A stretch of DNA of 32,000 bases. Origin: Pyrobaculum calidifontis JCM 11548 (GTDB lineage Archaea; Thermoproteota; Thermoprotei; Thermoproteales; Thermoproteaceae). Location: the NCBI RefSeq assembly GCF_000015805.1, contig NC_009073.1, positions 1,860,001 through 1,892,000 of the forward strand, written 5' to 3'. Below the pieces are notes generated by a model. The model was not told where the DNA came from and did no database searches. It saw nothing but the letters and a program-made list of their open reading frames with translations. This document shows positions 2,727 to 25,694 of the stretch, piece by piece (the stretch's first letter is position 1; every line of letters starts with the position of its first letter). A program made the translations under genes and the position numbers.

Positions 2727-3497
2727 ATGAAAATCGCCGTGTTGGTAAAGACGGCGCTGGACACAGGCCAGCTCAGGGTGAGAGACACCGTCGTAGTGGA
2801 GGAGACGCCGCTTAAGATAAGCGACATTGACAGAAACGCGGTTGAGGAGGCGGTGAAGCTCAAGGGGCAGGGCCAGGCCTACGGGGTCACGGTGTTGAAG
2901 TGGGGGCCGCTACAGAAGAGAGTGCAGGAGGCTGAGAACGTCCTAAGAGAGGCCTTGGCCATGGGCCTCGACGAGGCGTACCTAGTGGCAGACGAGGCCC
3001 TCCTCAACGCCAGCCACGTGGCCACGGCCAAGGCGATAGCCGCCGTGGTGAAAAAGGTTGGGGCAGACCTCGTGTTGGCGGGCGAGGCCACCGTTGACAA
3101 CTACACTGGGCAAATCCCCGCGAGAGTGGCGGCGGAGCTGGGGTGGCCGGTGATCACATACGCCAGAGAGCTTAAGGTGGAGGGCGGCAAAGTGGTGGCC
3201 AAGAGGGACTTAGAAGACCGGGTGGAGGTGGTGGAGGCGCCCCTCCCCGCGGTGGTCTCTGTGACTAGGGAGATAAACCAGCCCAGGATACCCACGCTTC
3301 TAGCCATTAGGGCGGCCATGAAGAAGCCTGTGCACAAGCTGACGCTCGGCGACTTGGGTATTTCCCTAGACGTGAAGGCCAAGGCGTCGTACAAGCCCGT
3401 GGTAATTCAGCGCAAGAAGGTCATCATCAAGGACGGCACGCCCGAGGAAAAGGCGGAGAAGCTTATACAGTACCTGAGGCAGGAGGGGGTGGTATGA
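2727..3497 (+). CDS. etfB: electron transfer flavoprotein, beta subunit
   Basis: The ORF track starts at 2661, but the ETF-beta-like sequence begins MKIAVLVKTALD at the ATG at 2727. A TATA-like CTATTTAT lies about 25 nt upstream. The stop overlaps the etfA start (ATGA). Confidence 0.85.
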   Translation: MKIAVLVKTALDTGQLRVRDTVVVEETPLKISDIDRNAVEEAVKLKGQGQAYGVTVLKWGPLQKRVQEAENVLREALAMGLDEAYLVADEALLNASHVATAKAIAAVVKKVGADLVLAGEATVDNYTGQIPARVAAELGWPVITYARELKVEGGKVVAKRDLEDRVEVVEAPLPAVVSVTREINQPRIPTLLAIRAAMKKPVHKLTLGDLGISLDVKAKASYKPVVIQRKKVIIKDGTPEEKAEKLIQYLRQEGVV

Positions 3498-4390
3498 AGG
3501 CGCTAGTCGTTTTCCCGAACAAGGAGTTGCTCTACGCTGCCTCTACGCTGGGCGAGGTGGGCGCCCTAGTCTTCAGCGACGCGGAGGCGGCCGCAGTGTC
3601 TGGAAAGGCAAGCAAGGTGTACGTGGCCGCTGTGGACCCACGCGTGCCAGAGCTTGTGGCCGAGGCGGCGGCGAAGGCGGCGGGCGGCTACGACGTAGTG
3701 CTGTTGCCCTCCACCAAGAACGCCAAGACCGTGGGCGGCCTGTTGGCCCAGCGGCTGGGGGCCGAGTTTTTGACCGACGTCCTGTCGCTGAAGGCGGAGG
3801 GGGGCGTGGTGAAGGCTGAGCGCTACGTGTTTGGAAACAAGGCGGTGGCCGCCGTAGAGTCGCCGACGCCGGTGGTTGTGTCAATAGCGCCGGGCAGATT
3901 CCAAGGCGAGCCGCCAGCCGTGCAGAGCTCCGTGGAGAAGATACAGGTAGACGCAGCGCCGAAGACGAGGGTTGTGGCAGTGGAGGAGAAGGCAAAGGGC
4001 GCCGTGAGGCTTGAGGAGGCCGAAATCATAGTATCCGTGGGAAGGGGCTTTAAGAAGAAGGAAGATATACAAATGGCCTTTGAGCTTGCCAAGATACTCG
4101 GCGGCCAAGTGGGCTGTTCACGCCCAATAGCGGCCGACCTCAAGTGGCTGCCAGAAGAGCACTGGGTCGGCCTCTCTGGGAAGAAGGTTAAGCCGAAGCT
4201 CTACCTAGCGATAGGCATATCTGGCCAGCCCCAGCACATCGCCGGCATTTTAGACAGCAGGATTATAGCCGCCATAAACAGCGACCCCGCGGCCCCCATC
4301 TTCCAATACGCCGACTACGGAGTGGTAGAAGACCTCTACAAAATCGTGCCGATACTTATAAACAAGCTGTCTAAGCTAAAATCGGCCTAA
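3494..4390 (+). CDS. etfA: electron transfer flavoprotein, alpha subunit
   Basis: The C-terminal FAD-binding region (IVSVGRG...[44 protein letters not shown]) matches the ETF-alpha signature region. Confidence 0.9.
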
Positions 4391-7458: not shown

Positions 7459-8384
7459 TTATTGCCGAAGTCGCTTTGCTGCGGCCGTGTACCACACCAC
7501 GAATACTACCGTGGCGATTATGATGAGAGGCGCCGTGGTCAAGAGGTAGTACGAATACCCCATTAAGCTTATAAGGACGCCGGCAATCAGCGGAGCGGGG
7601 ATCGAGGTTAAAGACTGGAGCGCCTCTATCGACGAGAATACAGTGAGAGTCTCTGCATCGCCCTTGGAGAAACCTCTTACAAATTTCTGAAAATTCGGGA
7701 TGTAAAGCGACGGCGATAGACTAAAGGCTAGTATGGCAACTCCAACAAGCGCGATTTTACCAACGTCGCTAGGCGCGTAGTATCCAAGCGAAAGAGACAA
7801 GTACCCCAAAGCTATAACGACGCTGGACAGCGCTATGAAGTGCACAGGCTTGTTCACCCTATCCGCCACCGCGCCCATAATGGGCGCGAGAATTAGAAAC
7901 CCAGCTTCAATTGCCGCAGTTGCTATGCCAGCGGGCAGAGGGCCCCCGAGAAGGTCCCAGAGGACGATCACCGAGTACACCGCCACGCCAGTTTCAAAGA
8001 AGGAGGTAACAACATCGTAGACAATTACGGGGTTAGAGACTATGGCCCGCAGTCTGCGGAGAGAGTCTCTTAAGCTACCAGCGACTTCTCCGGGACAACA
8101 ATGTTGACCAGGGATCTATTGAACGGCCTTAAACCCATATACAAGCCCGCAAACAGCGCCACAAATACGACGAGTTCAAGCGTCCCCCTAACGACAGTGA
8201 ACAACGGAAAGAGGACGGCCATGAGCACCGTCATGAGGGGCATCAGCAGGAACGACCTTGGCCCCGCCCTCAGAGACAGCGCAGTAGCCAGAGCCACGAC
8301 AACAAACGTCACCGCTTTCTCAAGCGAGTACGCCACCCCAATGACCTCTTCGCCAACTCCCCTCTCCCTCAACAACGCCGGCAA
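7459..8384 (-). pseudogene. MFS-type transporter remnant (frameshifted, internally deleted)
   Basis: There are two hydrophobic ORFs (8384-8070 and 7986-7459) in different frames. The downstream frame is open from about 8104. The N fragment carries a ..LSLRAGPRSFLL.. loop and the C fragment carries ..GAVADRVNKPVHF.. These resemble the MFS TM2-3 and TM8-9 'G-x-L-x-DR-x-G-R' loops. The segment expected between them (TM5-6) is absent. A TM1-like peptide (FPLVAVGVVVALLMYMALMTL*) sits in yet another frame at 8404-8469. Confidence 0.55.
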
Positions 8385-9683: not shown

Positions 9684-9691
9684 TTTATAAA
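9684..9691 (-). promoter_or_regulatory. TATA box (TTTATAAA) of the 5S rRNA gene
   Basis: Centred about 25 nt upstream of the inferred 5S 5' end. It overlaps the last codons and stop (AGT TTA TAA) of the upstream PaREP1-family gene. Confidence 0.6.
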
Positions 9692-10245
9692 CTTTTCTGG
9701 CCGGGGGTGGTGCTCGGCGTCGTCGCGGTCTGCCTTTTCAGTGTTCCACAGACGTTGTCGTAGAGTTCGCCTAGGTGTTCTGAGAACGGCTGTAGGAGGG
9801 CGCAGATGAGGTGGGCCGCCGTCTTGTCGTCTGGTATGTCCGTTAAAAGGCCCTCTGGGTCTGGCCCGTTGTACTGGTAGCGGTGTAGTTGGAGGGCTAT
9901 GGCCGTGTTTTTCACCACCTCAACGCCGGCGAATTTGGCCAACTCGGCGGCGATCTTGAACATGACAGAGGTGGGGGCTAGGGCTATTACCACGTCCACA
10001 TCCTCCACCTCCTCTTCCCCTGCCCTTATCTTGCGGGAGCCGGGGTAGATGGGCTTTAGCTTGTCTCTGTGCTCGGCGGCTAAGGCGCCTAGGTAGGCCT
10101 TCCACGCCTGAAAGGCCTTGCCGGCGGCGTTGCGGACGAGACCATCTTCCAAAAACTCTAGAGAAAGCCTAGCCTCCACGAGGGCCTCCCTGAGCCTGGC
10201 CTGTCTATAGGACTCAATGTCTTTCCAGGTCTTGGTAGGAAACAC
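9685..10245 (-). CDS. PaREP1/PaREP8-family protein
   Basis: 186 aa. ..YRQARLREALVEARLSLEFLEDGLVRNAAGKAFQAWKAYLGALA.. and ..ALQLHRYQYNGPDPEG.. match my memory of the Pyrobaculum PaREP1/PaREP8 repetitive family. Confidence 0.7.
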   Translation of the reverse strand: MFPTKTWKDIESYRQARLREALVEARLSLEFLEDGLVRNAAGKAFQAWKAYLGALAAEHRDKLKPIYPGSRKIRAGEEEVEDVDVVIALAPTSVMFKIAAELAKFAGVEVVKNTAIALQLHRYQYNGPDPEGLLTDIPDDKTAAHLICALLQPFSEHLGELYDNVCGTLKRQTATTPSTTPGQKSL

Positions 10246-13585: not shown

Positions 13586-14946
13586 GGCCTCGCCGCCTGT
13601 AGTTGTCTAACCTTTTCTATGTGCTTTGCGAGAGCCTCGGCGCTTGGCTCCACGTCTGGCAGAGCTCCCCGCAGGTATTCGTCGTATGCGGCTAGGTCTA
13701 GGAGGCCGTGGCCCGACATGTTGAAGAGTATTGTGATTGGCCTCCCCTCCCTCTTCGCGGCTAGGGCAAGCTCCACGGCGGCCTTCACCGCGTGGGCAGA
13801 CTCAGGCGCGGGAACCACGCCCTCGGTTCTGGCGAAGAGCACCGCCGCCTCGAAGACCTCCCTCTGGCCGTACGCCACGGCGCCTACCTCCCCCTCTGCC
13901 ACCAGGAGGGAGAGCGTTGGGGCACACCCGTGGTATCTAAGGCCCCCGGCGTGTATGGGAGGCGGCTTGTAGTCGTGGCCTATGGTGAACATCTTGATCA
14001 ACGGGGTCAAGCCCGCCGTGTCGCCGAAGTCGTAGAGGTACTCCCCCTTGGTCAACGTGGGCACGGCCTTGGGCTCCACGGCGAGGAACTTCACATCCTT
14101 CTCCGCCTTGCCCACCTTCTTCTCGTAGTAGAAAGGCCAGAAGAGGCCGGAGAAGGAGCTCCCACCGCCGCAGGCCCCCACCACGTAGTCCGGGTAGTCG
14201 TCGAACTGCCTAATCTGCTCCAGGGCCTCGAGGCCTATCACCGTCTGGTGTATCAGGACGTGGTTTAAGACGGAGCCTAGGACGTACTTTGCGCCGTTTT
14301 TGACCGCATCCTCCACGGCCTCGGATATGGCTATGCCCAGAGACCCTGGGTGGTTGGGGTCCTCTGAGAGGAACCTACGGCCGGCCTCGGTCCTGTCGCT
14401 GGGGCTCGGCACCACCTCGGCCCCCCAGAGCTCCATCAACACCCGCCTATACGGCTTCTGCAAATACGAGGCTCTGACCATGTAGACTGTGGCCTTTACG
14501 CCGAAGAGAGACGCGGCGAAGGCGACGGAGGAGCCCCACTGCCCGGCCCCAGTCTCCGTAGTCACTCTCCCCACGCCCTCCCTTGAGACGTAGTAGAGCT
14601 GGGCCACCGCCGTGTTGGGCTTGTGGGAGCCCGGCGGCGAGACGCCCTCGAACTTGTAGTAAATGCGCGCGGGGGTCTTCAAGGCCTCTTCAAGCCTCCT
14701 GGCCCTCACCAGAGGGGTGGGCCTCCATATCAGGTACACGTCTCTGACCTCCCGCGGTATCGATATCCACCTCTCCTGCGAAAACTCCTGCCTAACCAAC
14801 TCCCTGGCGAAGAGCATCTCGAAGTCCTTGGGCGCAACCGGCTCCCCATTCGGCTTTAGGTACGGAGGAAGCGGCTTGGGGAGGTCGGGCACTATGTTGT
14901 ACCACCGAGTGGGGACCATCCACTCCTCCGTCGACGACCTACGCAT
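13582..14946 (-). CDS. trpB2: tryptophan synthase beta chain-like protein, TrpB2 type
   Basis: [15 protein letters not shown] is the N-terminal extension typical of TrpB2. PLP-lysine context [11 protein letters not shown] and glycine loop [11 protein letters not shown] are present. The track ORF starts at 15036, but TATA spacing favours ATG 14946 ([17 protein letters not shown]). Confidence 0.85.
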
Positions 14947-14963
14947 GGCCGCTAGATGCATAA

Positions 14964-14973
14964 GGTATAAATA
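14964..14973. promoter_or_regulatory. shared TATA (GGTATAAATA) for divergent trpB2 and the 14993 operon
   Basis: Centred about 22 nt from ATG 14946 (minus strand) and about 25 nt from ATG 14993 (plus strand). Confidence 0.55.
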
Positions 14974-14992
14974 CGTTGGCTCAGTGGACTCT

Positions 14993-15514
14993 ATGAGCTT
15001 TAGGAAGACGCTCCTCGAGAGAATAGCCTCGTACATCCCCGGCTACGCTGGGTACAAAAAGAAGGAGGTCAGGCGGGAAACCGACGCCCTGGTGAGGAGG
15101 CACGTCGCCTCTATTCTGGCCCAAGCCGCCCAGTCCCTCGTCCTCTCGCCCGCAGATGCGCGGCTAGTGGCCGCAAACCCCGAGGCGAGGTACCTCTGGG
15201 ACTCCGTAAAGGCGGCGCTGGACAGAGTGACCCAGAGGATAGACAAGGCCCCCCACGGCTACTCCGGCTTCTTCGACTTAGTCAAGGTAGACGAGGCGGC
15301 CCTCGAGGAAGTGTACCGGCACGACCTCGCCTTGGTGGAATACGCCAAGAAGATCGCCGACGCCGCCGCCGCTGTCAAGTCGCTGAGGCCTGGGAGCGAG
15401 GAGTGGGCCAAGGCGCTGAGAGAGCTGTTGTCCCTCGTAGAGGCCCTCGACGCCGAGGTGGACAAGAGGGCCGCAATCCTAAAGGGCATAAGGGAGCCGC
15501 CCCAGCTTAAGTAG
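14993..15514 (+). CDS. hypothetical all-helical soluble protein (173 aa), upstream partner of the SPFH gene
   Basis: It is the in-frame internal ATG of the 14663-15514 track ORF. The upstream part of that ORF is antisense to trpB2. The sequence [37 protein letters not shown]... is rich in A/L/E/R/K with no TM segment. Its stop lies 5 nt before the next ATG. Confidence 0.6.
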
Positions 15515-15519
15515 AGGCC

Positions 15520-16542
15520 ATGCCGCAGGTCATCCAGTGGGTCAACCCCAGGGAGGGGGACATCATCTGGCGGTACCCCGTGGATAGAATTGAGTGGGGG
15601 GCCCAGCTCATAGTCGAGGAGTGGCAGGCGGCGGTCTTCATGCGCGACGGCAAGGTGTACGACGTCTTTCGCGCGGGGCGCCACACGTTGACCACTCTCA
15701 ACCTGCCCCTCCTAACCCAGGCGTTGAGCAGAGTGGCTGGGTTCGACAAATCGCCTTTCACAGCCACAGTGATATTCGTCTCCCTAAAGCAACACCAGCT
15801 CCCGTTCGGAGGCCGGGGGCAGACCGCCGAGCTGGCCCCCATACAGTTCTACGGCACGGCGTGGTTTAGAGTGGCAGACCCAGCCCTCTTCGTCACCCAA
15901 GTGGTAGGCGGGCAGAACGTCTACACCACCGAGGACCTGCAGAAGTTCTTGAGGGGCTACTTCAACGAGCTCCTCATGGCCGAGCTCTCCAAGCAGTCCA
16001 TCTTCACAATATACGCCAACCTGGAACAAGCCAGCTTTGTGGCAAAGGCGGCCATAGACCCCCACTTCCGCCGCATAGGCCTAGAGCTCATCGACCTGAA
16101 ATTTGAAGGACTCGACGTCACAGACCCCGTGTGGAGAGACCGGCTGTTCTACATAAGAGCCACCGGCGTAAACCCAGCCGAGTACCTGCGCATGGAGACT
16201 GTCCAAAAAGCCGCCGCAGAGCTCGGCAAAAGCCCAGGCGCCGCCGCGGGCACAGGCATAGTCCTCATACCGCCCCTCCTATGGCCACAACAGACGGCCC
16301 AACAACCCGCAACCGCACAACCGGCGCCCCAGGCCACCCCACAGCAACAACCGCAAGTAGCCGTATCACAGGGCCAACAACAACAGGGCATTGTCTGCCC
16401 CCAGTGTGGATATGTAAACCCCCCTGGGGCTAAGTTCTGTATAAACTGCGGCTATATGCTGGGGAAGAAGTGCCCCCAGTGCGGCTACGTAAATCCGCCA
16501 GATGCCAAGTTCTGCGCTAACTGCGGCACGAGACTGACTTAG
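15520..16542 (+). CDS. SPFH/band-7 superfamily protein of the YdjI / COG4260 type with a C-terminal double zinc ribbon
   Basis: The N-terminal ..IQWVNPREGDIIWRYP...GAQLIVEEWQAAVFMRDGKVYDVFRAGRHTLTTLNLPLL....SPFTATVIFV.. matches my memory of YdjI-like ('virion core protein'-type) SPFH proteins. The C-terminus carries two CPQCGYVNPP(G/D)AKFC(I/A)NCG ribbons. Confidence 0.8.
   Translation: MPQVIQWVNPREGDIIWRYPVDRIEWGAQLIVEEWQAAVFMRDGKVYDVFRAGRHTLTTLNLPLLTQALSRVAGFDKSPFTATVIFVSLKQHQLPFGGRGQTAELAPIQFYGTAWFRVADPALFVTQVVGGQNVYTTEDLQKFLRGYFNELLMAELSKQSIFTIYANLEQASFVAKAAIDPHFRRIGLELIDLKFEGLDVTDPVWRDRLFYIRATGVNPAEYLRMETVQKAAAELGKSPGAAAGTGIVLIPPLLWPQQTAQQPATAQPAPQATPQQQPQVAVSQGQQQQGIVCPQCGYVNPPGAKFCINCGYMLGKKCPQCGYVNPPDAKFCANCGTRLT
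16396..16527 (+). repeat. tandem duplication (75-nt period) encoding two zinc-ribbon modules
   Basis: 16396-16452 (TGCCCCCAGTGTGGATATGTAAACCCCCCTGGGGCTAAGTTCTGTATAAACTGCGGC) versus 16471-16527 (TGCCCCCAGTGCGGCTACGTAAATCCGCCAGATGCCAAGTTCTGCGCTAACTGCGGC). Confidence 0.85.
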
Positions 16543-16726
16543 CTAGTTACGATAAGAGGTGGTACGACGGTGCTACGTGCAAAACCAGTCAGTCCCACCC
16601 CTATGGCGGTTCTCCCCTCACAGTGTCGTCCAACCACTGCGTCTATTGGCGCAATGCATACCTCTATAGCGACCAGCGGCATGGGTCTAGGCCCTGTGCT
16701 CTATGCCGATTAGAGGTGCATTCGCC

Positions 16727-18880
16727 ATGCGGAGTACTCTAATAGTGATACTACTGGCGTGGCTGGCCTTAGCCAAAGGCATAGGCGTTGTAATCTACGA
16801 AGTAGAAATAAGCGGTGAGCTTGCAGAAGACATCTATGGGCGAGGCGTCGAAGTAGTGGGCGTCGGACCGCTACCCCTCTTCGTGGCGCCTGCCGGCGAA
16901 GACTATGCGGTTTTTGCGTTCACTGGCAACGTCACCCGCGTCAAATTCTTCAACATGTCTAGAGCCTACGTCGTAGTTCCCCGCGGCCCTCCGCCCGAGA
17001 CGCCGGGCGACTTCTACCTAGAAACTCCCCAAGGAAGGTACCCCCTCCGCTTCCGAAGCGGGGGGCCAGTGCTGGCCATCGTCGACTCGCTGGAGAGCCT
17101 TGAAAAAGTGCTCGCAGAGATGGGCTATGTGCCGCAAAGGGGCGGCAGGGCGAGGCTAGTAGGGGGAAGCCAGCAAGGCCGGCAACCCGAGCCCCTGCCA
17201 GAGCCTCTGGCCGCTTCGGTGGGTAGCACTGTGTACCCACTAGGGGGCGTCTACTTTAGAAATGTCAACGCAAAAGTGGGCGTAGTGGAGGTACAGCCGC
17301 ACGGAGACATCCAAGTTTGTTCGAACGTGAGAAACGTGGCGTATGTGGGGTTAGACGTAAATCAGCTCCTCTTAGGTTACGTCGCAGTGAACGGCACAGT
17401 GCAAGGCAACATAGTTGTACAAATCTACAAGGTCAACTCTGATGGAACATGTAGCAAGATAGGCGAGGAGAAGTACCCCCTCTATGCTGTTAGGTCGATG
17501 TACTACACTGTGGCCGGCGTAAACCCTACCTCGTCGCAAAACACGCAGATAGGCGTGAAAGTAATCTTGAACATTACGTCTGTAAGCGGCTCGCCTGTGG
17601 TGAAGGTGCAGGGAATGGCTGAGTACATTAGAACGGTGCATCACGGCTTTGAGGTGTCCGACTACTCTGTAGAGGTCGCGTGGGGCGACTTCGCCGGTAG
17701 CCGAAGTCCCATATACGTAGGGGCCAGGGTCTCAAGCATTTTGCTAGGCCCCTACATGATGCCTGACGGCGTGTTGCAAGACGGGACAAGATCTCTAAGC
17801 GTTGTAATTGAGGCCGACCCCGTAAACGGAGCTTGCCAGACTCTGTACTGGAGGCTTTACATAAACGGCTACAGCTACGAATACGGCTCGTCCACAGGAG
17901 TCCAGCTCTCGGGAACGTGTAGATACAGCGTGCAAATCTCCGGCGGATTTCCACTGCTTGCGGTTAGACACGCCAAGACTCTGACAGAGGATCTCATGTA
18001 TCAACTGAGGATCTCGTACAACGACGGAAGCGCGCCCTTTGTTAGATACTACTGGCTCAATCCCCACACCCCACTGAGAGGGTCTAGGTGGGCCGAGGTG
18101 TGGAAATCAACGCCGAATAGTCAAGGCAAAATACCTGAAATATGGCAAGAGCCACACCTCCTCACCCAGTTGCAGTTGCTGGGAATGTACGGCGGCTGGG
18201 GCGGCTCCGACGCGACTAGCAAGCTACGGGTACACGGCCTTGTGAGTATTTTTGCAGACAGTCTTTCGCGGGGGCCGGCCATTGTCATGTATGTAACGGG
18301 AAGGGTGCTCCAGCCCTCCGGCGCCACATCGCCCGTGGGCTACTGGGAGGTGCGCCTCAGGTTCCCAATCCCAGTCTCAACTGGGGCCCCTATCTACGCA
18401 GCCTACGTGGGAGATTCGAGGTTTGAAGAGCTTAGCCCGCCTCAGTGGGTGTGGATAGCCAAGATGCTTAAAAAGGCGGTAGACTTCCTAGTGGGAGCCC
18501 TGCAGTTAGACAGGTTCAAGACACTTATACACTCGGTGTTCTCCTACGCCGTGGGCCAGCTCCTAGAGTCGGCAGGCCCCCGCGCCGATGCCGCAAATGT
18601 AGATCCCTACACCTTGAAGCTGTACTACAACGCCGGGTGGGCCAACGACAAGCCGTGGGATACCGTGCTCTACTGGGCCCTCTTTAACTCCGACAAATTT
18701 ACCACATTTACAGTTACATACGTCAAGGTATATCCCATCGAAGCCACGCCAAACATAAACTTAAACCTTAGGCCTTCAAATGCTGAGCGATATTATCCTG
18801 AGGTGGATCACAGTTTTGTAAAACTGTGGGCCTTCAAGAGACTCACCGGGGCCGAGGCGATCTACATATGGCTGAGCTAG
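16727..18880 (+). CDS. large hypothetical secreted/extracellular protein (about 717 aa from ATG 16727; track ORF starts at 16703)
   Basis: Signal-like MRSTLIVILLAWLALAKG, and several N-x-S/T sequons (NVT, NMS, NGT, NIT). I recognise no family. Markedly A/T-richer than the flanks (line 17401-17460 hand count: 24 G+C of 60). Confidence 0.65.
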   Translation: MRSTLIVILLAWLALAKGIGVVIYEVEISGELAEDIYGRGVEVVGVGPLPLFVAPAGEDYAVFAFTGNVTRVKFFNMSRAYVVVPRGPPPETPGDFYLETPQGRYPLRFRSGGPVLAIVDSLESLEKVLAEMGYVPQRGGRARLVGGSQQGRQPEPLPEPLAASVGSTVYPLGGVYFRNVNAKVGVVEVQPHGDIQVCSNVRNVAYVGLDVNQLLLGYVAVNGTVQGNIVVQIYKVNSDGTCSKIGEEKYPLYAVRSMYYTVAGVNPTSSQNTQIGVKVILNITSVSGSPVVKVQGMAEYIRTVHHGFEVSDYSVEVAWGDFAGSRSPIYVGARVSSILLGPYMMPDGVLQDGTRSLSVVIEADPVNGACQTLYWRLYINGYSYEYGSSTGVQLSGTCRYSVQISGGFPLLAVRHAKTLTEDLMYQLRISYNDGSAPFVRYYWLNPHTPLRGSRWAEVWKSTPNSQGKIPEIWQEPHLLTQLQLLGMYGGWGGSDATSKLRVHGLVSIFADSLSRGPAIVMYVTGRVLQPSGATSPVGYWEVRLRFPIPVSTGAPIYAAYVGDSRFEELSPPQWVWIAKMLKKAVDFLVGALQLDRFKTLIHSVFSYAVGQLLESAGPRADAANVDPYTLKLYYNAGWANDKPWDTVLYWALFNSDKFTTFTVTYVKVYPIEATPNINLNLRPSNAERYYPEVDHSFVKLWAFKRLTGAEAIYIWLS

Positions 18881-19401
18881 TCTACAAACTCCTCCTTTTT
18901 TCAGCCATCTGTCTCGCCTCTTTACTCGCCTTCGTAGTCCCTTGGGGGACGCTGGTGCCCTCGCTTTTCGGCCTACTTCTCTTCCTCTGGTCTGCCCTAT
19001 TTGCCTCCTTCTTAGGTGCAAAGGGGCGCCACTACGTCTACCTACTACTTCTCTATACGCCTTTCTTCGCCGCGCCGCTTTACACGGCGGCCATGGCAGT
19101 GTCGCCTCTCTCCTTTCTAGCCGCCGTGATAGCCTTTTTCTACCTGGCGTATAAACGTTTCGGAATACTCCTCGGCGTGGCCTATGTGATTCTAGTGGCC
19201 ATGCTCGGCGGAGTGTATCTCTACCTCATCGACTTAGCAACAGGTGGGCTAGTCGAGAGAGCCACAAAGGAGGGCTTAATGCCAGACGCCATGTGGACTG
19301 TGCCCGCCTTCTTCATACCCGCCGCCGTGGCGACGGTCTTGGCGCACATCTCAGCCGCATTTATCTACAGAGCCGCGGGAATTAAGCCCAGAGAGGAGTG
19401 A
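18868..19401 (+). CDS. hypothetical polytopic membrane protein (177 aa)
   Basis: The internal ATG of the track ORF gives MAELVYKLLLFSAICLASLLAFVV... with 5-6 hydrophobic helices. It overlaps the end of the 725-aa gene by 13 nt, which suggests co-transcription. Confidence 0.6.
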   Translation: MAELVYKLLLFSAICLASLLAFVVPWGTLVPSLFGLLLFLWSALFASFLGAKGRHYVYLLLLYTPFFAAPLYTAAMAVSPLSFLAAVIAFFYLAYKRFGILLGVAYVILVAMLGGVYLYLIDLATGGLVERATKEGLMPDAMWTVPAFFIPAAVATVLAHISAAFIYRAAGIKPREE

Positions 19402-19527: not shown

Positions 19528-19827
19528 ATGGGTGCTGGGGAGGTCGCCGCCGCAGTGGCAACGCTGGCGGTGGGAATTTACTTAATTTTGGCATCTCTAG
19601 GCACAGTGCCCCTGGCCGTGAATTTCCTGCTCGGGCTAGCCGCGGCCACCTTCGGCGTGTCCTACGCCGTAGTAGGTAGGACGAGGGAAGCGGCCTTTTG
19701 GGGAGGGCTCTTGCTAATTGTTGGCGTAGCCCTCATCTACGGCGGCGGTGCGTCGCCCCTCCTCGTAGTCGGCGTAGTGCTGGTCTTCGCCTCGCTGGTT
19801 GCCCTGCTAAGTCTCCTGCGCAAGTAA
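19528..19827 (+). CDS. hypothetical small membrane protein (99 aa, 3-4 TM, Gly/Ala/Leu/Val-rich)
   Basis: Hydrophobic ORF with a TATA-like AACTTATTTTAGAG (19498-19511) about 24 nt upstream of the ATG. Confidence 0.55.
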   Translation: MGAGEVAAAVATLAVGIYLILASLGTVPLAVNFLLGLAAATFGVSYAVVGRTREAAFWGGLLLIVGVALIYGGGASPLLVVGVVLVFASLVALLSLLRK

Positions 19828-19921: not shown

Positions 19922-20767
19922 CTAGAGTCTCTTTTCTGCCTTGTACTTGCCCACTCTCGCCGCGGCTAAGTTGAGCACGAGCCTGGTCGCCGCTCCCAGG
20001 CTGGCGACGCCTCCGCCCACTGCGCCGAGGGCCGGCGGCAGGCCCACATAAGCCGCCGCCATTGCGCCAAGCGCCGCGGCGCCGGCCACAACGGCCGCGG
20101 CCATCCCCAGCGCCTCCGCGCGGCCTCTCGCCGATATTGGGTACTCCATGTAGAGCACTGTGCCGTCTGTGGCGTCGACCGCCGCACTGTACCTCCTTCC
20201 GCGGTAGTCGTAGGCCAAGCGCCAGATGGGGTAATAGACGAGGCCCTCGAGGCGCCACTCAACGCCTATCTTCACCTTGAAGACCTGGGCGTATGCCCTG
20301 GCCTCTTCCACCACCTCTTGAAGCGAGGTGAAGGCGGCCTCTGGGTCTAGGTCCGGCGAGTGGAAGACTCCGACTCTCTCTAGGGTGGGCTTGAATGGGG
20401 TGCGCCACCTCGCGGGGAATCTAAAGCCCGTCGGGAGGGGGACTGGGGGGCTAGAGGTGGCTAGGGCTGTGGCGTATGTGGCAAGTTGGTCGAGAGGTGG
20501 GAAAGACACGTAGTAGAGGTAGAGGGGGAGGAAGTGTAGCTCTGCCTCCACTGGGGATGCGGCGGGGAGGTCCTCGGGGGCCGCCGTGGGTCTAAAGTTT
20601 AGCACAGCCTTAAACGCCGCGGTCTTGTCCACCGCGGGCTTGAAGATGTAGACGTTTTCATAGGTCTTTCCCTCGCTCAGCGCTGTGCCGCAGTATGGAC
20701 ACACGTAGAATCTGCGCCCGGGCGGCGCCTCGTACTTAGCGCCGCAGAAGGGGCACTGGATAATCAC
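19922..20767 (-). CDS. zinc-ribbon protein with C-terminal Gly/Ala-rich membrane anchor (paralog B, 281 aa)
   Basis: The GTG start overlaps the upstream stop (GTGA). The N-terminus (M/V)IIQCPFCGAKYEAPPGRRFYVCPYCG is a CxxC-x17-CxxC ribbon. It shares the motifs LHFLPLYLYYV and YYPIWRLAYDYRGRRYSAAVDATDGTVLYMEYP with the upstream gene. The C-terminal ~60 aa are G/A-rich hydrophobic. The upstream part of the 372-aa track ORF overlaps the previous gene and is R/G-rich. Confidence 0.7.
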   Translation of the reverse strand: MIIQCPFCGAKYEAPPGRRFYVCPYCGTALSEGKTYENVYIFKPAVDKTAAFKAVLNFRPTAAPEDLPAASPVEAELHFLPLYLYYVSFPPLDQLATYATALATSSPPVPLPTGFRFPARWRTPFKPTLERVGVFHSPDLDPEAAFTSLQEVVEEARAYAQVFKVKIGVEWRLEGLVYYPIWRLAYDYRGRRYSAAVDATDGTVLYMEYPISARGRAEALGMAAAVVAGAAALGAMAAAYVGLPPALGAVGGGVASLGAATRLVLNLAAARVGKYKAEKRL

Positions 20768-21783
20768 GTCTCTACCCTCCTGCTCTTCAAAAGGCCCCCA
20801 GCCGCGAGGTACGCAGCGGCCGCGCCGCCGACCAGCGCCGCGGCTCCAAACAGTGGGTCTGCCGCAACTGCTACCGCCGCGCCCAGTCCCCCGAGTAGGC
20901 CGGCCGCCGCGGCGGCGCCCACGACGCTTATCGCCCTGTTTTCCACGAAGGAGGGCTCCTCGGCCACTACCACGGCGCCGTCCCACCCGGCGGAGTAGTA
21001 GCTGTAGTGAGACCCCTTGTAGAAGTACGGCACAATCCACATGGGCAAGTAGGTGAGCGGCGACACGGCGAGCTTCTCCACTGTGTAGTCCACGGCCTTG
21101 TCCACCACGCTCGTGGCGGCGGCGATGACGCCCAGCATAGCCCTGGCTCTCTCAGAGGCGTCGCTGTCCACGGCGGCCAAGAGCTTGGGGACGAGGGCGC
21201 GCACCGCCTTGGCCTTGGCCTGCTCCTCTGTAAACTCGCCCGCAAGAAAGGCGGAGGCAGTGGCGGCCTCCTTCGCCACCTCGGGCAGAGGCTTGGGCTC
21301 CGGCGCAGTCTTGAAGAAGTGGTCCACTAGCTTGTCCACGGAGAGGCCCCATGCAGACCTCCTCGCAAGCACGGCCACCACGTCGCTAAGCCGCACGGCG
21401 CCCTCCACGTCGACGGTCCTAGTCACCACCCGCGTCTGAGGCCTCCCTCCTACGTACACCGTCTTGGTGTAGGTCACGACTACGCGCGCTTTGTACACTG
21501 CGGACATTGCCACGTCCACTAGGTAGAAGGGCAGGTAGAGGAGCGTGGGGGCGGCGAAGTTTATGTCCCGCATCCGCCTGCCGAGGTTGAAGTCCCTCTT
21601 CGTCCTCTCCACGGCGCGTCTAATGACCTCGGAGGCCGAGAGCGTGGGCACGGCCAGCGCCCTCCCGGCGGAGCCGTCAAGAAAGTTGGGCTGGCCGCAG
21701 TACCTACACACGACTACCACCGAGTCAGGCGTCACGTCAAGCGGCGCGCCGCAGTACCGGCACCGCAACTCCACATACCCCAC
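20764..21783 (-). CDS. zinc-ribbon protein with C-terminal Gly/Ala-rich membrane anchor (paralog A, 339 aa)
   Basis: N-terminal CRYCGAPLDVTPDSVVVVCRYCG ribbon, LLYLPFYLVDV and TYLPMWIVPYFYKGSHYSYYSAGWDGAVVVAEEP motifs, and G/A-rich C-terminal TM segments. A TATA (GATATAAAAAATT, 21801-21813) lies about 23 nt upstream of the GTG start. Confidence 0.7.
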   Translation of the reverse strand: MGYVELRCRYCGAPLDVTPDSVVVVCRYCGQPNFLDGSAGRALAVPTLSASEVIRRAVERTKRDFNLGRRMRDINFAAPTLLYLPFYLVDVAMSAVYKARVVVTYTKTVYVGGRPQTRVVTRTVDVEGAVRLSDVVAVLARRSAWGLSVDKLVDHFFKTAPEPKPLPEVAKEAATASAFLAGEFTEEQAKAKAVRALVPKLLAAVDSDASERARAMLGVIAAATSVVDKAVDYTVEKLAVSPLTYLPMWIVPYFYKGSHYSYYSAGWDGAVVVAEEPSFVENRAISVVGAAAAAGLLGGLGAAVAVAADPLFGAAALVGGAAAAYLAAGGLLKSRRVET

Positions 21784-21822
21784 GGAGGCCCAGTGGCTGA
21801 GATATAAAAAATTGGGCCGCCG

Positions 21823-22014
21823 TTATGTGTCTCGGCGCGGGCCCCCTGCCTTAAGCAACCTCTCCGCCCGCTTTCGGACTAACTCCCGCCAGGCAAGCTT
21901 GGCTTCCTCAAACCTATCCCACACGGCGGCCATCCTCCTCCTAAGCTCCTCCACCCTCTCCAACGTCTCTTCAACCTCCACGTCAGAGACGTTCTCTTCT
22001 GCCTCCACAGCCAA
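21823..22014 (-). CDS. small acidic/basic coiled-coil protein (about 61-63 aa)
   Basis: ..EETLERVEELRRRMAAVWDRFEEAKLAWRELVRKRAERLL.. It is heptad-like, on the same strand and immediately upstream of the zinc-ribbon pair. A TATA-like AATTTAA lies at about 22029-22035. Starts with TTG 22014 or GTG 22008. Confidence 0.4.
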   Translation of the reverse strand: MAVEAEENVSDVEVEETLERVEELRRRMAAVWDRFEEAKLAWRELVRKRAERLLKAGGPRRDT

Positions 22015-23376: not shown

Positions 23377-24015
23377 CTATGGCGCATCTCCGCGTTGGGC
23401 GTCTTGGAGGAGCGCCTTGGCTACCTTATAGCTTACTTTGACTCCCTGGAGCTTTACGGGGGCGTTGTCACATAGGATTTCCACCTCTGGCTCCGCCGAC
23501 ACGACGTAGACGGCGAATCTGCGCCTTTTCCCACAGTCGAGGATTGTGTCAGACTGCTCCAATGGCACAACGCGGTGCTCCAGCGCCCCCCTCACCTTTA
23601 CGTCTACGCACTCCACCTCCGCCGAGGCGAAGTAGACGGGGCGGTTTTCCACTGCCTCAACCGCCCTCTTGAAGCGGCGGTAGAGGAGGACGGAGGCCAC
23701 GTGTGTGCAAATGCCCCTCCGCCTCCTCCAGCCGAATGTGGAGTAGTAGCAAGTACACTCCCACCGCCCCTCCCTCGCGCTCCACCACACTTGGTAGAGC
23801 GGCTTCCAGTCTCCCAGCTCCCTCACCCCCTCCACGACGTAGAGGCCCTCCCTCACCTCGCGCACGTGGGGCAGTCTGAAGAGGGCCCTCTTGACCCACG
23901 ACCGGCTCTTTCCGGGGAAATCCCGCCTAAGCCTGTCGAGGGCGATGCGGAGGGGGTCGCCGTTGGGGCGTCTATTTTTGCCTGTGGTATAGCCTATGCG
24001 GCGGTTTCGAGGCAT
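23377..24015 (-). CDS. SWIM zinc-finger domain protein
   Basis: 212 aa. CTCYYSTFGWRRRRGICTH fits the SWIM CxC-x(n)-CxH signature. Its ATG overlaps the nuclease stop by 1 nt (TAATG). Confidence 0.7.
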   Translation of the reverse strand: MPRNRRIGYTTGKNRRPNGDPLRIALDRLRRDFPGKSRSWVKRALFRLPHVREVREGLYVVEGVRELGDWKPLYQVWWSAREGRWECTCYYSTFGWRRRRGICTHVASVLLYRRFKRAVEAVENRPVYFASAEVECVDVKVRGALEHRVVPLEQSDTILDCGKRRRFAVYVVSAEPEVEILCDNAPVKLQGVKVSYKVAKALLQDAQRGDAP

Positions 24016-24746
24016 TATCGCTTGGCTAATTTAGCTACGACAGCCGCCATTAGCAGTAGGGCCACGACTACGGCTAACAGTGCCAAGGCGTAGCCGCCGA
24101 AGGCTATGGCAGTTTCAGTTACCGTGGTAGTGGTGGTTACCGTGTACGTGACAGGCTCCTTTTGCGTTACCGTATGCGTAACCACCACTGTATCTGTCAC
24201 AGTTTTGGTGACCGTCACCGTGGCTGTGACTGTGTTTGTGGTCGCCACCGTAGTGGTGGAAGTCTGAGTTACTGTGACGGTGACGGGGGTTACGCTGGTC
24301 GTCGCCTTAGGCGCAGCGGCCTTGGGCAAGTAGAGGGGCCACGGCGGGTGGAACTCGTTGGGGTAGTCCACGTATGCGGCGTAGCCGCGCTCGACGAGCC
24401 ACTGGTTTACGTTCAGCCAATGCGTCTCGTTGTAGTCGAGGTACGCCACAGCGACGAAGCGTCCATATCTGTCGGTCTTGTACAAGTCGTCTATGTCTAG
24501 ACAGACCCGCCTCCCCAGGAGGAGGGCCTCAAGCGCCGCCTTGGCCCTCTGCCCCTCAGCAGTAGAGAGCTCGGGAGCGTCGACGTCGGCCAGCCTAACC
24601 CGCTCGGGCAAGCCAGACACATAGAACGTGTCCCCATCGACGACCCTAGTGACTACGCCGCAGTGCTCCTCAACTGCGCCAAACGTTGGGACTGCAAACA
24701 ACAGCGCAAGAGCGACAACAGCGGCAAACAAGCCCAACCTCAACAC
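24015..24746 (-). CDS. staphylococcal-nuclease-like thermonuclease with signal peptide, Thr/Val-rich stalk and C-terminal TM anchor
   Basis: Signal-like MLRLGLFAAVVALALLFAVPTFG. SNase core VVDGDTFYV...RVRLADVDAPE....DRYGRFVAVAYL. About 64 aa of T/V low complexity. C-terminal hydrophobic helix followed by KLAKR. Confidence 0.8.
   Translation of the reverse strand: MLRLGLFAAVVALALLFAVPTFGAVEEHCGVVTRVVDGDTFYVSGLPERVRLADVDAPELSTAEGQRAKAALEALLLGRRVCLDIDDLYKTDRYGRFVAVAYLDYNETHWLNVNQWLVERGYAAYVDYPNEFHPPWPLYLPKAAAPKATTSVTPVTVTVTQTSTTTVATTNTVTATVTVTKTVTDTVVVTHTVTQKEPVTYTVTTTTTVTETAIAFGGYALALLAVVVALLLMAAVVAKLAKR
24111..24302 (-). repeat. low-complexity Thr/Val-coding tract (ACC/GTN repeats)
   Basis: Encodes TTSVTPVTVTVTQTSTTTVATTNTVTATVTVTKTVTDTVVVTHTVTQKEPVTYTVTTTTTVTE. 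On the plus strand it appears as reiterated GTGAC/GGTNAC units. Confidence 0.8.
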
Positions 24747-24749
24747 ACC

Positions 24750-25694
24750 CTACTCTAGGCCAGCATCCGTGATGCGGTAGTCTATACGGACGTCCGGGGG
24801 CATGCCGGGGACGTCGAGAGGCCACATGTAGCCCTCCGCCTTGGCCTTATTCGGCCTAGCCATCATGAACCTGGCGTTTACCGCGTGCGCCAACACGTTT
24901 CCCCCGGCGGGCCTCTTGCCCACGGAAAAGGCCTCGGGGACGTCCATGACCTGGTTTGTGAGCACCGACGTTAGCCCAAACGTCCTGGCGTGTCTCCTCA
25001 GCCAATCCACGAGGTAGTGAATGCGTTGCTGTCTAGCCGCCAGCATCTCCCTCCCAACGAACTCGGCGCGGTACAGCGCAGTAATGGTGTCAATCACGGC
25101 GAGGCGGCAGCCCTCCGCTATGTGCCGTGGTAGGTCGAACTTGACGATTTGCTCAAGCTGAACCACGTTGGCCGGCTGATAAACGACGATTGCCTCTAAC
25201 GCCTTGTCGACGTCGAGGCCGAACCTCTTTGCCACTGCCTCGACAAGGCCGTCGTTGAACGTCCCCTCGGTGTCTATGTACACCACACGCGTCGTGAAGC
25301 CCTGCGCCAACGCCGCGACAGAGAGCTGGTGTGCCAGCATGGACTTGCCCGCGCCGAATTCCCCGGCGAATTCGTAGATGAAGGCTTCGCGGATGCCGCG
25401 CCAGGGAGTCTTCTCGTCGAATTCGGAGACTCCGGTCTTGAAAACGCGCCTCTGTTGCGAGCGGAGCTCCCTAGCCGTTAACGGCCTAGTCGTGCCGACG
25501 CGCTGAATTGCCTGTTGAAGGATTTTGACGGCGCGGTCGTACTCCACGCCAGCCTCCACCAGCTCCTCAACGGTGAACTCGGCCAAGTGCTCCACAGACG
25601 TAACCCCAAGCTCCCTAAGACGCTCAAGCGTCTTAGGGCCAACTCCCTCAAGCTCCTCTAGGGGGTCTCTTTCCCTCTTCTTGCTCATACCCAT
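24750..25694 (-). CDS. RadA/Rad51-family recombinase (N-terminal HhH domain + RecA core); either RadA itself or a divergent paralog
   Basis: The HhH region is LEELEGVGPKTLERLRELGVTSVEHLAEFTVEEL. Walker A is GEFGAGKS and Walker B is LAVIDT. ..ALYRAEFVGREMLAARQQ.. and ..TNQVM...GGNVLAHA.. parallel RadA. Several segments differ from the canonical archaeal RadA as I remember it (GEFGSGKTQ, ERGGL insert). TATA spacing favours the second ATG (25688). Confidence 0.75.
   Translation of the reverse strand: MGMSKKRERDPLEELEGVGPKTLERLRELGVTSVEHLAEFTVEELVEAGVEYDRAVKILQQAIQRVGTTRPLTARELRSQQRRVFKTGVSEFDEKTPWRGIREAFIYEFAGEFGAGKSMLAHQLSVAALAQGFTTRVVYIDTEGTFNDGLVEAVAKRFGLDVDKALEAIVVYQPANVVQLEQIVKFDLPRHIAEGCRLAVIDTITALYRAEFVGREMLAARQQRIHYLVDWLRRHARTFGLTSVLTNQVMDVPEAFSVGKRPAGGNVLAHAVNARFMMARPNKAKAEGYMWPLDVPGMPPDVRIDYRITDAGLE

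Follow-up and report, generated by a model that had tools for sequence, protein, structure and literature searches.

Gene organization of the locus

The window, a stretch of 32,000 nucleotides of Pyrobaculum calidifontis JCM 11548 DNA, contains three minus-strand open reading frames, designated A, B and C, at the coordinates reported in a first-pass annotation made from the sequence alone. Gene A (20764..21783, minus strand) encodes a 339-aa protein, identified from its open reading frame, sequence and homologs as an A-type homolog of SamG/YdjG; alternative starts at V4 or L6 are possible, and elsewhere gene callers give a 334-aa product. Gene B (19922..20767, minus strand) begins with GTG and encodes a B-type SamG/YdjG paralog of 281 aa. 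ORF C (21823..22014, minus strand) encodes a small coiled-coil protein of 63 aa if translated from TTG, or more likely 61 aa if translated from GTG at 22008.

The genes found to accompany A and B lie on the plus strand. c2 (14993..15514) encodes a soluble protein of 173 aa (about 175 aa in the family) and c1 (15520..16542) a soluble SPFH protein of 340 aa. They are followed by two inserted genes (16703..19401, plus strand), which encode proteins of 725 aa (with a hydrophobic segment at the N terminus) and 191 aa (multi-TM), and by c13 (19528..19827, plus strand), which encodes a small multi-TM protein of 99 aa. In Pyrobaculum the module is split: about 3.4 kb separates c2-c1 from B-A, which are encoded on the plus and the minus strand, respectively. 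As a result of this split co-transcription has been lost, and the case for a shared function of A-B and c1 is drawn from other lineages.

A and B are ancient paralogs

The stop codon of A (TGA, 20764-20766) and the start codon of B (GTG, 20765-20767) overlap in the sequence GTGA, as had been noted. Both proteins carry the motif L-[YF]-LP-[FL]-YL (LLYLPFYLV in A, LHFLPLYLY in B) and the longer motif beginning Y-x-P-x-W (YLPMWIVPYFYKGSHYSYYSAGWDGAVVVAEEP in A, YYPIWRLAYDYRGRRYSAAVDATDGTVLYMEYP in B) that were first read by eye. The similarity of A and B exceeded chance: BLASTP returned two colinear HSPs (E = 1e-5 and 6e-5), and profile-profile comparison with hhalign gave a probability of 99.5% (E = 6.8e-23) across 233 columns.

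In the tree, the A-type (54 sequences) and B-type (50 sequences) proteins formed separate clades with parallel internal structure, and wherever the genes were paired their order was A then B. The separate clades and the constant gene order support the proposal that an ancient tandem duplication has been retained, and A and B are true paralogs. The distance between the stop and start codons ranged from -10 to +7 nt in 41 of the 50 A-B pairs, 17 of which had the 4-nt overlap. That A and B are so tightly coupled is consistent with a putative A-B heteromer.

Domain architecture of A and B

An N-terminal zinc ribbon was present in both proteins as first described, with the difference that the spacing is CxxC-x14-CxxC in each and not x16/17. 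The ribbon of A (21697..21762, minus strand) is formed by C8, C11, C26 and C29, and that of B (20690..20755, minus strand) by C5, C8, C23 and C26; all four cysteines were invariant among 17 members of the A family and 16 members of the B family. The Pfam zinc-ribbon matches of A fell below threshold, and scans of A, B and C against Pfam, NCBIfam and PADLOC returned only such sub-threshold zinc-ribbon matches and no match to a defence system.

The C-terminal beta-sheet motif of A (residues 244-277; 20953..21054, minus strand) directly precedes the membrane anchor and reads Y-L-P-x-W...Y.Y.G..Y....DG.V...E.P. It aligns with residues 177-210 of B (20138..20239, minus strand) and with VLLPVWMVSYDYERAEHIFAMNGQTGKVVGKPP of YdjG, and in the AlphaFold2 model of A it forms strands E244-255, E258-265 and E271-277. 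The motif in B overlaps a weak match to the Pfam PepSY domain (PF03413; E = 0.026, below the cutoff) over the sequence VDATDGTV. Few other members showed this match, and the PepSY assignment was not confirmed when checked across the B family. The alpha/beta domain of A and B is possibly YpeB/PepSY-like. PepSY domains are typically extracytoplasmic, whereas the domain of A and B is predicted to be cytoplasmic.

Hydropathy analysis located the hydrophobic segments of A and B at their C termini only. The anchor of A (residues 284-332; 20788..20934, minus strand) is a Gly/Ala-rich hydrophobic helical hairpin with Kyte-Doolittle windows of at least 1.5, and in the AlphaFold2 model (pLDDT 88.3, pTM 0.77) the hairpin consists of helices 280-307 and 310-332. 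The anchor of B (residues 217-270; 19958..20119, minus strand) is likewise Gly/Ala-rich and hydrophobic, and the family alignment shows this region to be conserved; its hydropathy is clear for residues 217-250, and the remaining tail is Gly-rich and weaker. Hydropathy in both proteins and the modelled hairpin in A thus agree with the membrane anchors that had been suggested to follow the long motif. The ribbon and the alpha/beta domain are predicted to be cytoplasmic. Neither a search of the A profile against PDB sequences nor a Foldseek search of the A model against the PDB returned anything significant; matches of A to TldD/E, secretins and beta-pore-formers were set aside as noise (best E = 0.2, TM below 0.12).

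A and B belong to the YdjG/SamG family

A B. subtilis-type operon was retrieved (locus L069) by way of the primer sequences given in PMC8581546. The A1 profile matched YdjG with 55 bits and an E-value, for that single comparison, of 3e-19. Profile positions 4-305 corresponded to YdjG residues 51-330, so that the alignment ran from the second zinc ribbon of YdjG to its TM segment and took in nearly all of A. The A2 profile, which represents the B-type proteins, matched YdjG with 24.5 bits (E = 9e-10). The Cys4 ribbon, the homologous core with its motifs, the C-terminal TM anchor and the linkage to an SPFH gene, all features of the YdjG/SamG family, were found in A and B, which are archaeal representatives of this family. 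The first-pass annotation knew of no function for proteins of this layout. This statement has to be revised in view of experimental work on the bacterial homolog, YdjG/SamG of B. subtilis (PMC8581546; bioRxiv 10.64898/2026.02.06.704340).

YdjG consists of two zinc ribbons, a domain that Ravi et al. called YpeB-related, and a TM segment (PMC11237479). The motifs (L/I)P(F/V)W and P-x-W...Y.Y...G.V in its alpha/beta domain also occur in A and B, its anchor is likewise hydrophobic and C-terminal, and its gene is likewise linked to a Band_7_1 SPFH gene whose product has C-terminal zinc ribbons. The proteins differ in that YdjG has two ribbons and is anchored by one C-terminal TM segment, whereas A and B each have one ribbon and a hairpin of about 50 aa that is rich in Gly and Ala. 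Furthermore, in archaea the gene is duplicated as two anciently diverged, translationally coupled paralogs, in contrast to the YdjG gene of the pspA-ydjGHI (pspA-samGHI) operon. The archaeal module also lacks PspA and the TPM protein YdjH/SamH of that operon and contains the four-helix-bundle protein c2 instead.

A conserved gene neighbourhood across archaea

A genome scan yielded 68 loci. A and B were adjacent in 50 of them, and c2 and c1 were present in 45-47; the order was c2-c1-A-B or A-B-c2-c1 on one strand. The lineages that carry the module include the Thermoproteales, Desulfurococcales/Acidilobaceae, Thermococcus (in the scan, metagenome-assembled genomes), Methanomethylicota (Methanomethylicia), Culexmicrobium and Nitrososphaerota, among others. 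It had been suggested that relatives of A and B might neighbour SPFH or PspA genes. In the archaeal loci the SPFH part of this suggestion held, with c1 adjoining A-B in most of 47 loci. The PspA part did not, as neither PspA nor a TPM protein turned up in the window or the scanned flanks of the module. PspA and the YdjH/SamH partner are a feature of the Bacillus operon and not of the protein family. A search of the module flanks for further conserved neighbours found none; the flanks held unrelated housekeeping genes that differed between lineages. In cluster-name look-ups, distant family members carried no name other than 'hypothetical protein'.

c1 comprises an SPFH domain (Pfam Band_7_1, E = 4.7e-28), a low-complexity linker and a C-terminal double zinc ribbon (DZR, E = 3.6e-13). 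Its profile matched YdjI with 143.9 bits (E = 3e-46) over the full length, including the C-terminal zinc ribbons. By hydropathy, TM segments are absent from both c1 and c2, and c1 shares with YdjI/SamI the TM-free architecture of SPFH domain, linker and zinc ribbons. c1 is the YdjI/SamI ortholog and the conserved partner of A-B.

The fourth conserved member of the module, c2, adjoined c1 in all 45 loci that have it. It is a soluble four-helix bundle (AlphaFold2 pLDDT 83.5) with the conserved motifs IPGYxGYxxKExRRExD and GYSGFFD, and no Pfam family matched it. Foldseek returned generic helical bundles only, the best being the IncA four-helix bundle (TM 0.62), and the PDB profile search returned designed coiled coils only. 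Neither in sequence nor in fold did c2 match PspA_IM30, Snf7 or Vipp1 significantly, and no ESCRT-III protein appeared in the Foldseek top 50; HMM, Pfam, PDB profile, AlphaFold2 and Foldseek analyses together identified c2 only as a generic four-helix bundle, not as PspA or YdjH. In an acidobacterium, a c2 homolog likewise occurs in linkage with a Band_7_1 gene, and the anchor there is not A-B but a zinc-ribbon-TM-Toastrack protein. A weak NCBIfam match of c2 to the Leptospira LIMLP_15305 family (E = 1e-5) was far below the cutoff.

c13 is an accessory member specific to the Thermoproteaceae. It lies between c1 and A in four Thermoproteus loci (L009, L010, L012 and L039) and immediately follows c1 in two Pyrobaculum loci (L001 and L005). 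The two genes inserted between c1 and c13 in the window had no family matches, were missing from that position in other lineages, and occupy an interval that differs between strains; they lie outside the conserved module.

Proposed function of the A-B module

On the basis of the YdjG/SamG homology and the adjacency of the SPFH gene across archaea, the A-B module represents a known membrane-stress module in a form not previously described. To our knowledge, SamG/YdjG and SamI/YdjI have been studied in B. subtilis only. We propose that A and B, translated from a leaderless, translationally coupled transcript, would form a heteromer on the cytoplasmic side, held in the membrane by their C-terminal Gly/Ala-rich hairpins. 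The heteromer would serve c1, the soluble SPFH protein, both as its receptor at the membrane and as a regulatory partner, with c2 and, in the Thermoproteaceae, c13 working alongside, and the module as a whole would sense membrane stress or maintain the membrane, as in the case of SamGHI in B. subtilis. We consider that A-B probably serves as the receptor and regulatory partner of c1 in such a membrane-stress role.

In B. subtilis, YdjG interacts with YdjH, and both are needed for the membrane localisation of YdjI and PspA; in two-hybrid analysis the partner of YdjI and PspA was YdjH and not YdjG (PMC8581546). Since the archaeal module has no YdjH/TPM homolog, direct contact between A/B and the SPFH protein is an extrapolation from the bacterial system. 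A like logic, in which a small membrane-integral receptor recruits soluble oligomerising proteins on the cytoplasmic side, is found in the Psp/ESCRT-III systems, where PspA is paired with PspBC, LiaI or YdjGH (PMC8581546, PMC11237479). The archaeal module differs from these in containing no PspA/ESCRT-III homolog.

A bolder version of the proposal, which we regard as speculative and on balance doubtful, is that c2-SPFH-(c13)-A-B constitutes an ancient, self-contained archaeal membrane-maintenance machine that operates without PspA or ESCRT-III. An obligate A-B heteromer would nucleate SPFH assembly, and c2 would be the effector that replaces PspA. If this were true, the SamG-SamI partnership would either predate the recruitment of PspA or be independent of it.

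Alternatively, A and B could be a self-standing pair for stress sensing and signalling whose output is independent of the SPFH protein, which would only damp the signal or, in Pyrobaculum, be disconnected from it. SamI restrains SamGH signalling in B. subtilis, and its loss leaves that signalling unrestrained, which places SamG/H upstream (bioRxiv 10.64898/2026.02.06.704340); in addition, the Pyrobaculum A-B genes have a likely promoter of their own and lie apart from c2-c1. In most other lineages, however, A-B lies directly beside the SPFH gene, and no kinase or HTH output domain was found in A, B or their conserved neighbours. We consider a self-standing signalling pair unlikely, and it overlaps the receptor model more than it excludes it.

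The association of a tail-anchored zinc-ribbon protein with a soluble SPFH protein is conserved across many archaeal phyla. The comparison separates the core of the system, a SamG-type anchor and a SamI-type SPFH protein, from lineage-specific parts such as PspA and SamH. It also points to thermostable proteins from Pyrobaculum, Thermococcus and the Desulfurococcales for structural work, and genetic tests would be feasible should the module occur in a strain that is genetically tractable.

ORF C and the putative promoter of A

Between ORF C and A lies a TATA-like box (21802..21812, minus strand; AATTTTTTATAT, written as TTTTTATAT at 21802-21810), about 22-27 nt upstream of the GTG of A. The box is conserved in another strain, which has an A protein 97% identical to this one. 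Judged by what is generally known of archaeal promoters, it is likely the promoter of a leaderless A-B transcript.

ORF C had been taken as the first gene of a three-gene operon, in which its product could be a functional subunit or adaptor of an A-B complex. It is on the same strand as A, 39 nt upstream, and the open reading frame is retained (61-63 aa) in close strains and called by gene finders. Gene calls for it, however, were limited to the same strain or very close relatives, and no C homolog was found beside A in any of the 68 loci, including those of other Pyrobaculum and Thermoproteus genomes and of other lineages. The sole similarity of ORF C was to 34 coiled-coil residues of a secreted Pyrobaculum protein family. 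Comparison of two close strains gave 8/7/9 differences at codon positions 1/2/3 of ORF C (186 nt), which is no third-position bias, compared to 1/5/23 in A (1020 nt). With a species-specific distribution, no codon-position bias and a conserved TATA-like box on its downstream side, ORF C is not demonstrably in the operon and not a conserved member of it. It is probably outside the A-B system, and a role as subunit of an A-B complex is very unlikely.

Other family assignments

Adjacent Thermoproteales paralogs have also been described in arCOG03733 and arCOG03734, CdvA-related proteins proposed as cell-division components, and one of the two has an N-terminal zinc ribbon (PMC11188069). By their published description, these proteins are specific to the Thermoproteales and combine a long coiled coil with a CdvA-like domain, and the ribbon is missing from one of the two paralogs (PMC11188069). 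A and B, on the other hand, both have a ribbon and a TM anchor, and their family spans many archaeal phyla and Bacillus. It is highly improbable that A and B are these arCOG proteins, from which the description sets them apart.

The reading of B and its relatives as TFIIB-type transcription factors, which the NCBI names ('TFIIB-type zinc ribbon-containing protein'; 'transcription factor IIB, partial') and a Pfam Zn_Ribbon_TF match to B (E = 6e-6) would favour, can practically be dismissed, as the match scored 26.1 bits against a cutoff of 29 and was limited to the 30-aa ribbon, cyclin-fold core repeats were absent, and B has a C-terminal membrane anchor and aligns with YdjG over its remainder. 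Assignment to the YdjG/SamG family corrects these misleading annotations and provides names for several archaeal families labelled 'hypothetical', for which Pfam and NCBIfam offer no model.

A and B are paralogous, membrane-anchored zinc-ribbon proteins

The first-pass annotation described three minus-strand ORFs as an operon, and all three are present: ORF C (21823-22014, 63 aa, TTG start), gene A (20764-21783, 339 aa, GTG start) and gene B (281 aa, from a GTG start at 20767 to 19922). The sequence reads GTGA where the TGA stop of A overlaps the GTG start of B. Gene callers on related contigs place the A start five codons later, which gives a 334-aa protein. The motifs listed for A and B were found, except that the ribbon is CxxC-x14-CxxC in both proteins rather than having the x16/17 spacing reported. 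The four ribbon cysteines are invariant in the family alignments of both A and B. The proposed paralogy was correct, as both BLASTP and profile-profile similarity were significant. BLASTP of A against B gave two colinear HSPs: the first (E = 1e-5) takes in the ribbon and extends through LYLPFY, the second (E = 6e-5) covers the C-terminal motif. The A-family and B-family profiles aligned over 233 columns with 99.5% probability (E = 6.8e-23).

Hydropathy analysis placed hydrophobic segments only at the C terminus, at residues 284-332 of A and 217-250 of B, the latter with a Gly-rich continuation. The AlphaFold2 model of A was confident (pLDDT 88.3, pTM 0.77). Its N-terminal half comprises the zinc ribbon, a helix (50-68), a very long beta-hairpin (80-139) and a helical insert, and its C-terminal half a long helix (186-217), a four-stranded sheet (223-277) and a helical hairpin (280-332). 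A pore-forming or secretin-like role for the long hairpin was rejected, as Foldseek matches were non-significant and it had no other basis.

A word-indexed search recovered homologs of A and B only from Pyrobaculum, Thermoproteus and a few distant sequences, labelled "hypothetical", "zinc ribbon domain-containing" or, misleadingly, "TFIIB-type". TFIIB identity was rejected, since the match is confined to the ribbon and below threshold, and a TM anchor is present. The family is large, as 2015 representative proteins came up at E ≤1e-3 (277 at ≤1e-10) when the profile search was exhaustive; neither Pfam nor NCBIfam holds a model of its core.

The A-B pair is an archaeal form of YdjG/SamG

The combination of an SPFH protein (c1) with a zinc-ribbon membrane protein brought B. 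subtilis pspA-ydjGHI (now pspA-samGHI) into the comparison. The first ten codons of ydjG, taken from a published primer (PMC8581546), were used in a degenerate DNA search, which retrieved an operon of Bacillus type from metagenomic sequence (L069). The A profile matched YdjG with 55 bits (E = 3e-19, single comparison) at profile positions 4-305, and the alignment, which spans the second zinc ribbon of YdjG to its TM segment, contains MYIPFWMF and LLPVWMVSYDYERAEHIFAMNGQTGKVVGKPP. YdjG was likewise matched by the B profile (E = 9e-10). Ravi et al. (PMC11237479) describe YdjG as a pair of zinc ribbons with a YpeB-related domain, itself uncharacterised, and a TM segment. The c1 protein, an SPFH (Pfam Band_7_1) protein that ends in a double zinc ribbon and lacks a TM segment, matched YdjI over its full length, terminal zinc ribbons included (143.9 bits, E = 3e-46). 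The pair is thus no orphan: it is the duplicated archaeal version of a bacterial protein whose partners are known. No description of archaeal homologs or of the duplicated pair was found in the literature searched, papers on the Bacillus system included.

YdjI is a soluble SPFH protein, and the membrane foci of YdjI and PspA need the membrane proteins YdjG and YdjH; YdjG-YdjH, YdjH-YdjI and YdjH-PspA interactions were reported (PMC8581546). Signalling by the SamGH membrane complex is held back by SamI (bioRxiv 10.64898/2026.02.06.704340). In the Bacillus system YdjH is the two-hybrid contact to the SPFH protein, and the archaea are without YdjH.

A and B form a conserved block with c1 and c2

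Sixty-eight loci from the scan, one genome per species, were compared: ORFs were called, scored against the profiles of A and B, and all clustered. In 50 loci an A-type gene has a B-type gene directly downstream in the same orientation; these loci come from lineages that include Thermoproteaceae, Desulfurococcales, Acidilobaceae, Pyrodictiaceae, Thermococcus, Methanomethylicota, Culexmicrobium, Geoarchaeota and Nitrososphaerota-labelled MAGs. The gap from A stop to B start is -10 to +7 nt in 41 of these 50 pairs, with a 4-nt overlap in 17. A neighbour-joining tree rooted on YdjG separated the paralogs: the 54 A-type proteins make up a single pure clade, and 50 of the 51 B-type proteins a second. 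The two clades mirror each other in lineage structure, indicating that the duplication took place before the module spread among these lineages. A and B are ancient, translationally coupled partners.

Clusters c1 and c2 are found together in 45-47 loci, where the genes are nearly always contiguous and share a strand; the order is c2-c1-A-B or A-B-c2-c1. The block is flanked by unrelated housekeeping genes that differ by lineage, so it behaves as a self-contained unit. The A-B pair is genomically tied to c2 and to the soluble SamI/YdjI ortholog.

Several variants were observed. One Desulfurococcaceae MAG (L024, 5063-9539) carries two complete pairs in tandem, A-B-A-B, downstream of c2-c1. Bathyarchaeia and Thermoplasmata have a single, intermediate-type copy, sometimes with a second copy of 410 aa; in eight of their loci (L053, at 3194-4246; L052, L057-L060, L063 and L065) a gene for an M48 (HtpX-like) membrane peptidase divergently adjoins the single-copy SamG-like gene. 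In one Thermoprotei MAG (L054, 7087-7986), a single case, the end of a spermidine synthase gene coincides exactly with the A start; Psp systems have been linked with polyamine genes (Ravi et al., PMC11237479).

c2 and the SPFH protein as a probable conserved pair

The c2 gene lies at 14993-15514 (plus strand); family alignment sets its start at ATG 14993 and shortens the mechanical ORF (14663-15514, 283 aa) to 173 aa. Its family of soluble proteins of ~175 aa has the strongly conserved motifs IPGYxGYxxKExRRExD and GYSGFFDxVKVDE, and c2 was modelled as a four-helix bundle (pLDDT 83.5). No family assignment was obtained. Foldseek returned generic helical bundles, none significant (best, IncA, TM 0.62), sequence profiles gave no relationship to PspA or ESCRT-III, and direct comparison with YdjH (TPM domain) and PspA matched neither.

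In a Pyrinomonadaceae (Acidobacteria) MAG (L072, 6001-9903), c2 is followed by a zinc-ribbon-TM-Toastrack protein (DUF4097, faint match) and a Band_7_1 SPFH protein with a triple zinc ribbon. This arrangement suggests that c2 and the SamI-type SPFH protein are a conserved pair with a variable membrane partner, which supports A-B as occupants of the membrane-partner slot. The block continues with a 167-aa protein and a double-zinc-ribbon protein, and a gas-vesicle gene cluster adjoins it.

Proposed role of the module

A and B both combine a zinc ribbon of cytoplasmic type with an anchor at the C terminus. We propose that they assemble as a heteromer at the cytoplasmic surface of the membrane, where the heteromer would dock the SPFH protein and perhaps regulate it; c2 would act as a soluble cofactor or effector. 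By analogy with SamGHI, the module may serve in membrane-stress sensing or maintenance. That it is a PspA-independent SPFH membrane module with c2 as a new effector is a tentative reading, and we consider it rather improbable. Action of A-B as an autonomous sensor overlaps with the docking model and does not exclude it.

The docking proposal has two weak points: the Bacillus SPFH contact was through YdjH, and the Pyrobaculum module is split. In the window c2 is followed by c1 (15520-16542, plus), two non-conserved genes (16703-19401, plus) and the small multi-TM gene c13 (19528-19827, plus), which is convergent with B-A. This split, convergent layout is common to three Pyrobaculum loci (L001, L005 and L077), whereas Thermoproteus has an unbroken c2-c1-c13-A-B; c13 directly follows c1 in other Pyrobaculum genomes. 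The products of the two intervening genes (725 aa with an N-terminal hydrophobic segment; 191 aa, multi-TM) had no family matches, and their position between the SPFH gene and c13 is empty in other lineages. The interval looks like an insertion hot spot. In L077, whose A protein is 97% identical, the B-c13 interval holds two more genes (390 and 205 aa).

ORF C and other readings of the pair

A three-gene operon including C, as first annotated, is disfavoured. No other relative at genus level keeps C beside A. The exact ORF is called in many same-species metagenome contigs, and a strain with a 97% identical A protein has a 61-aa version (GTG start, TTG lost). Comparison of the two strains showed 24 differences in 186 nt of C (8/7/9 over the three codon positions) and 29 in 1020 nt of A (1/5/23), so there is no sign of purifying selection on the C protein. 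The central ~80 nt of C are almost identical between strains and both ends highly diverged. A TATA-like box, TTTTTATAT, lies 22-27 nt upstream of the A start, between C and A, and is conserved in both strains, which fits an independent leaderless A-B transcript. We regard C as, at best, a small ORF that is young and confined to the strain level, and probably not a component of the system.

C resembles only one other protein, over 34 aa of coiled coil (NMSD...L.EVE..R.....FE..K.A). This protein, secreted, rich in N-x-S/T and 300-350 aa long, is encoded at other positions close to the locus in other genomes of Pyrobaculum (L003, 4410-5321; L007, 9933-10964); no further pieces of its gene were found in the window. 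In Pyrobaculum sp. WP30 the gene for this secreted protein is immediately downstream of B.

A CdvA-like arCOG03733/03734 pair (PMC11188069) is an unlikely identity for A-B, being set apart by its published description.

Remaining window content

Elsewhere the window is ordinary chromosome of Pyrobaculum type, encoding a proteasome subunit, ETF, RtcA, a NOG1-type GTPase, RadA, PurP-like domains, HemA, glycosyltransferases and PaREP1. A 212-aa minus-strand ORF (23377-24015) has a SWIM-like CxC...CxH pattern (WECTCYY...GICTHV), with no Pfam match at 1e-3, and belongs to a run of minus-strand genes that also includes an SNase-domain gene (24015-24746) and RadA (24750-25694). A possible truncated transporter is the 175-aa minus-strand ORF at 7459-7986, whose match to MFS_1 is confined to the first half of that model; a PaREP1-family gene lies nearby (9685-10245, minus).
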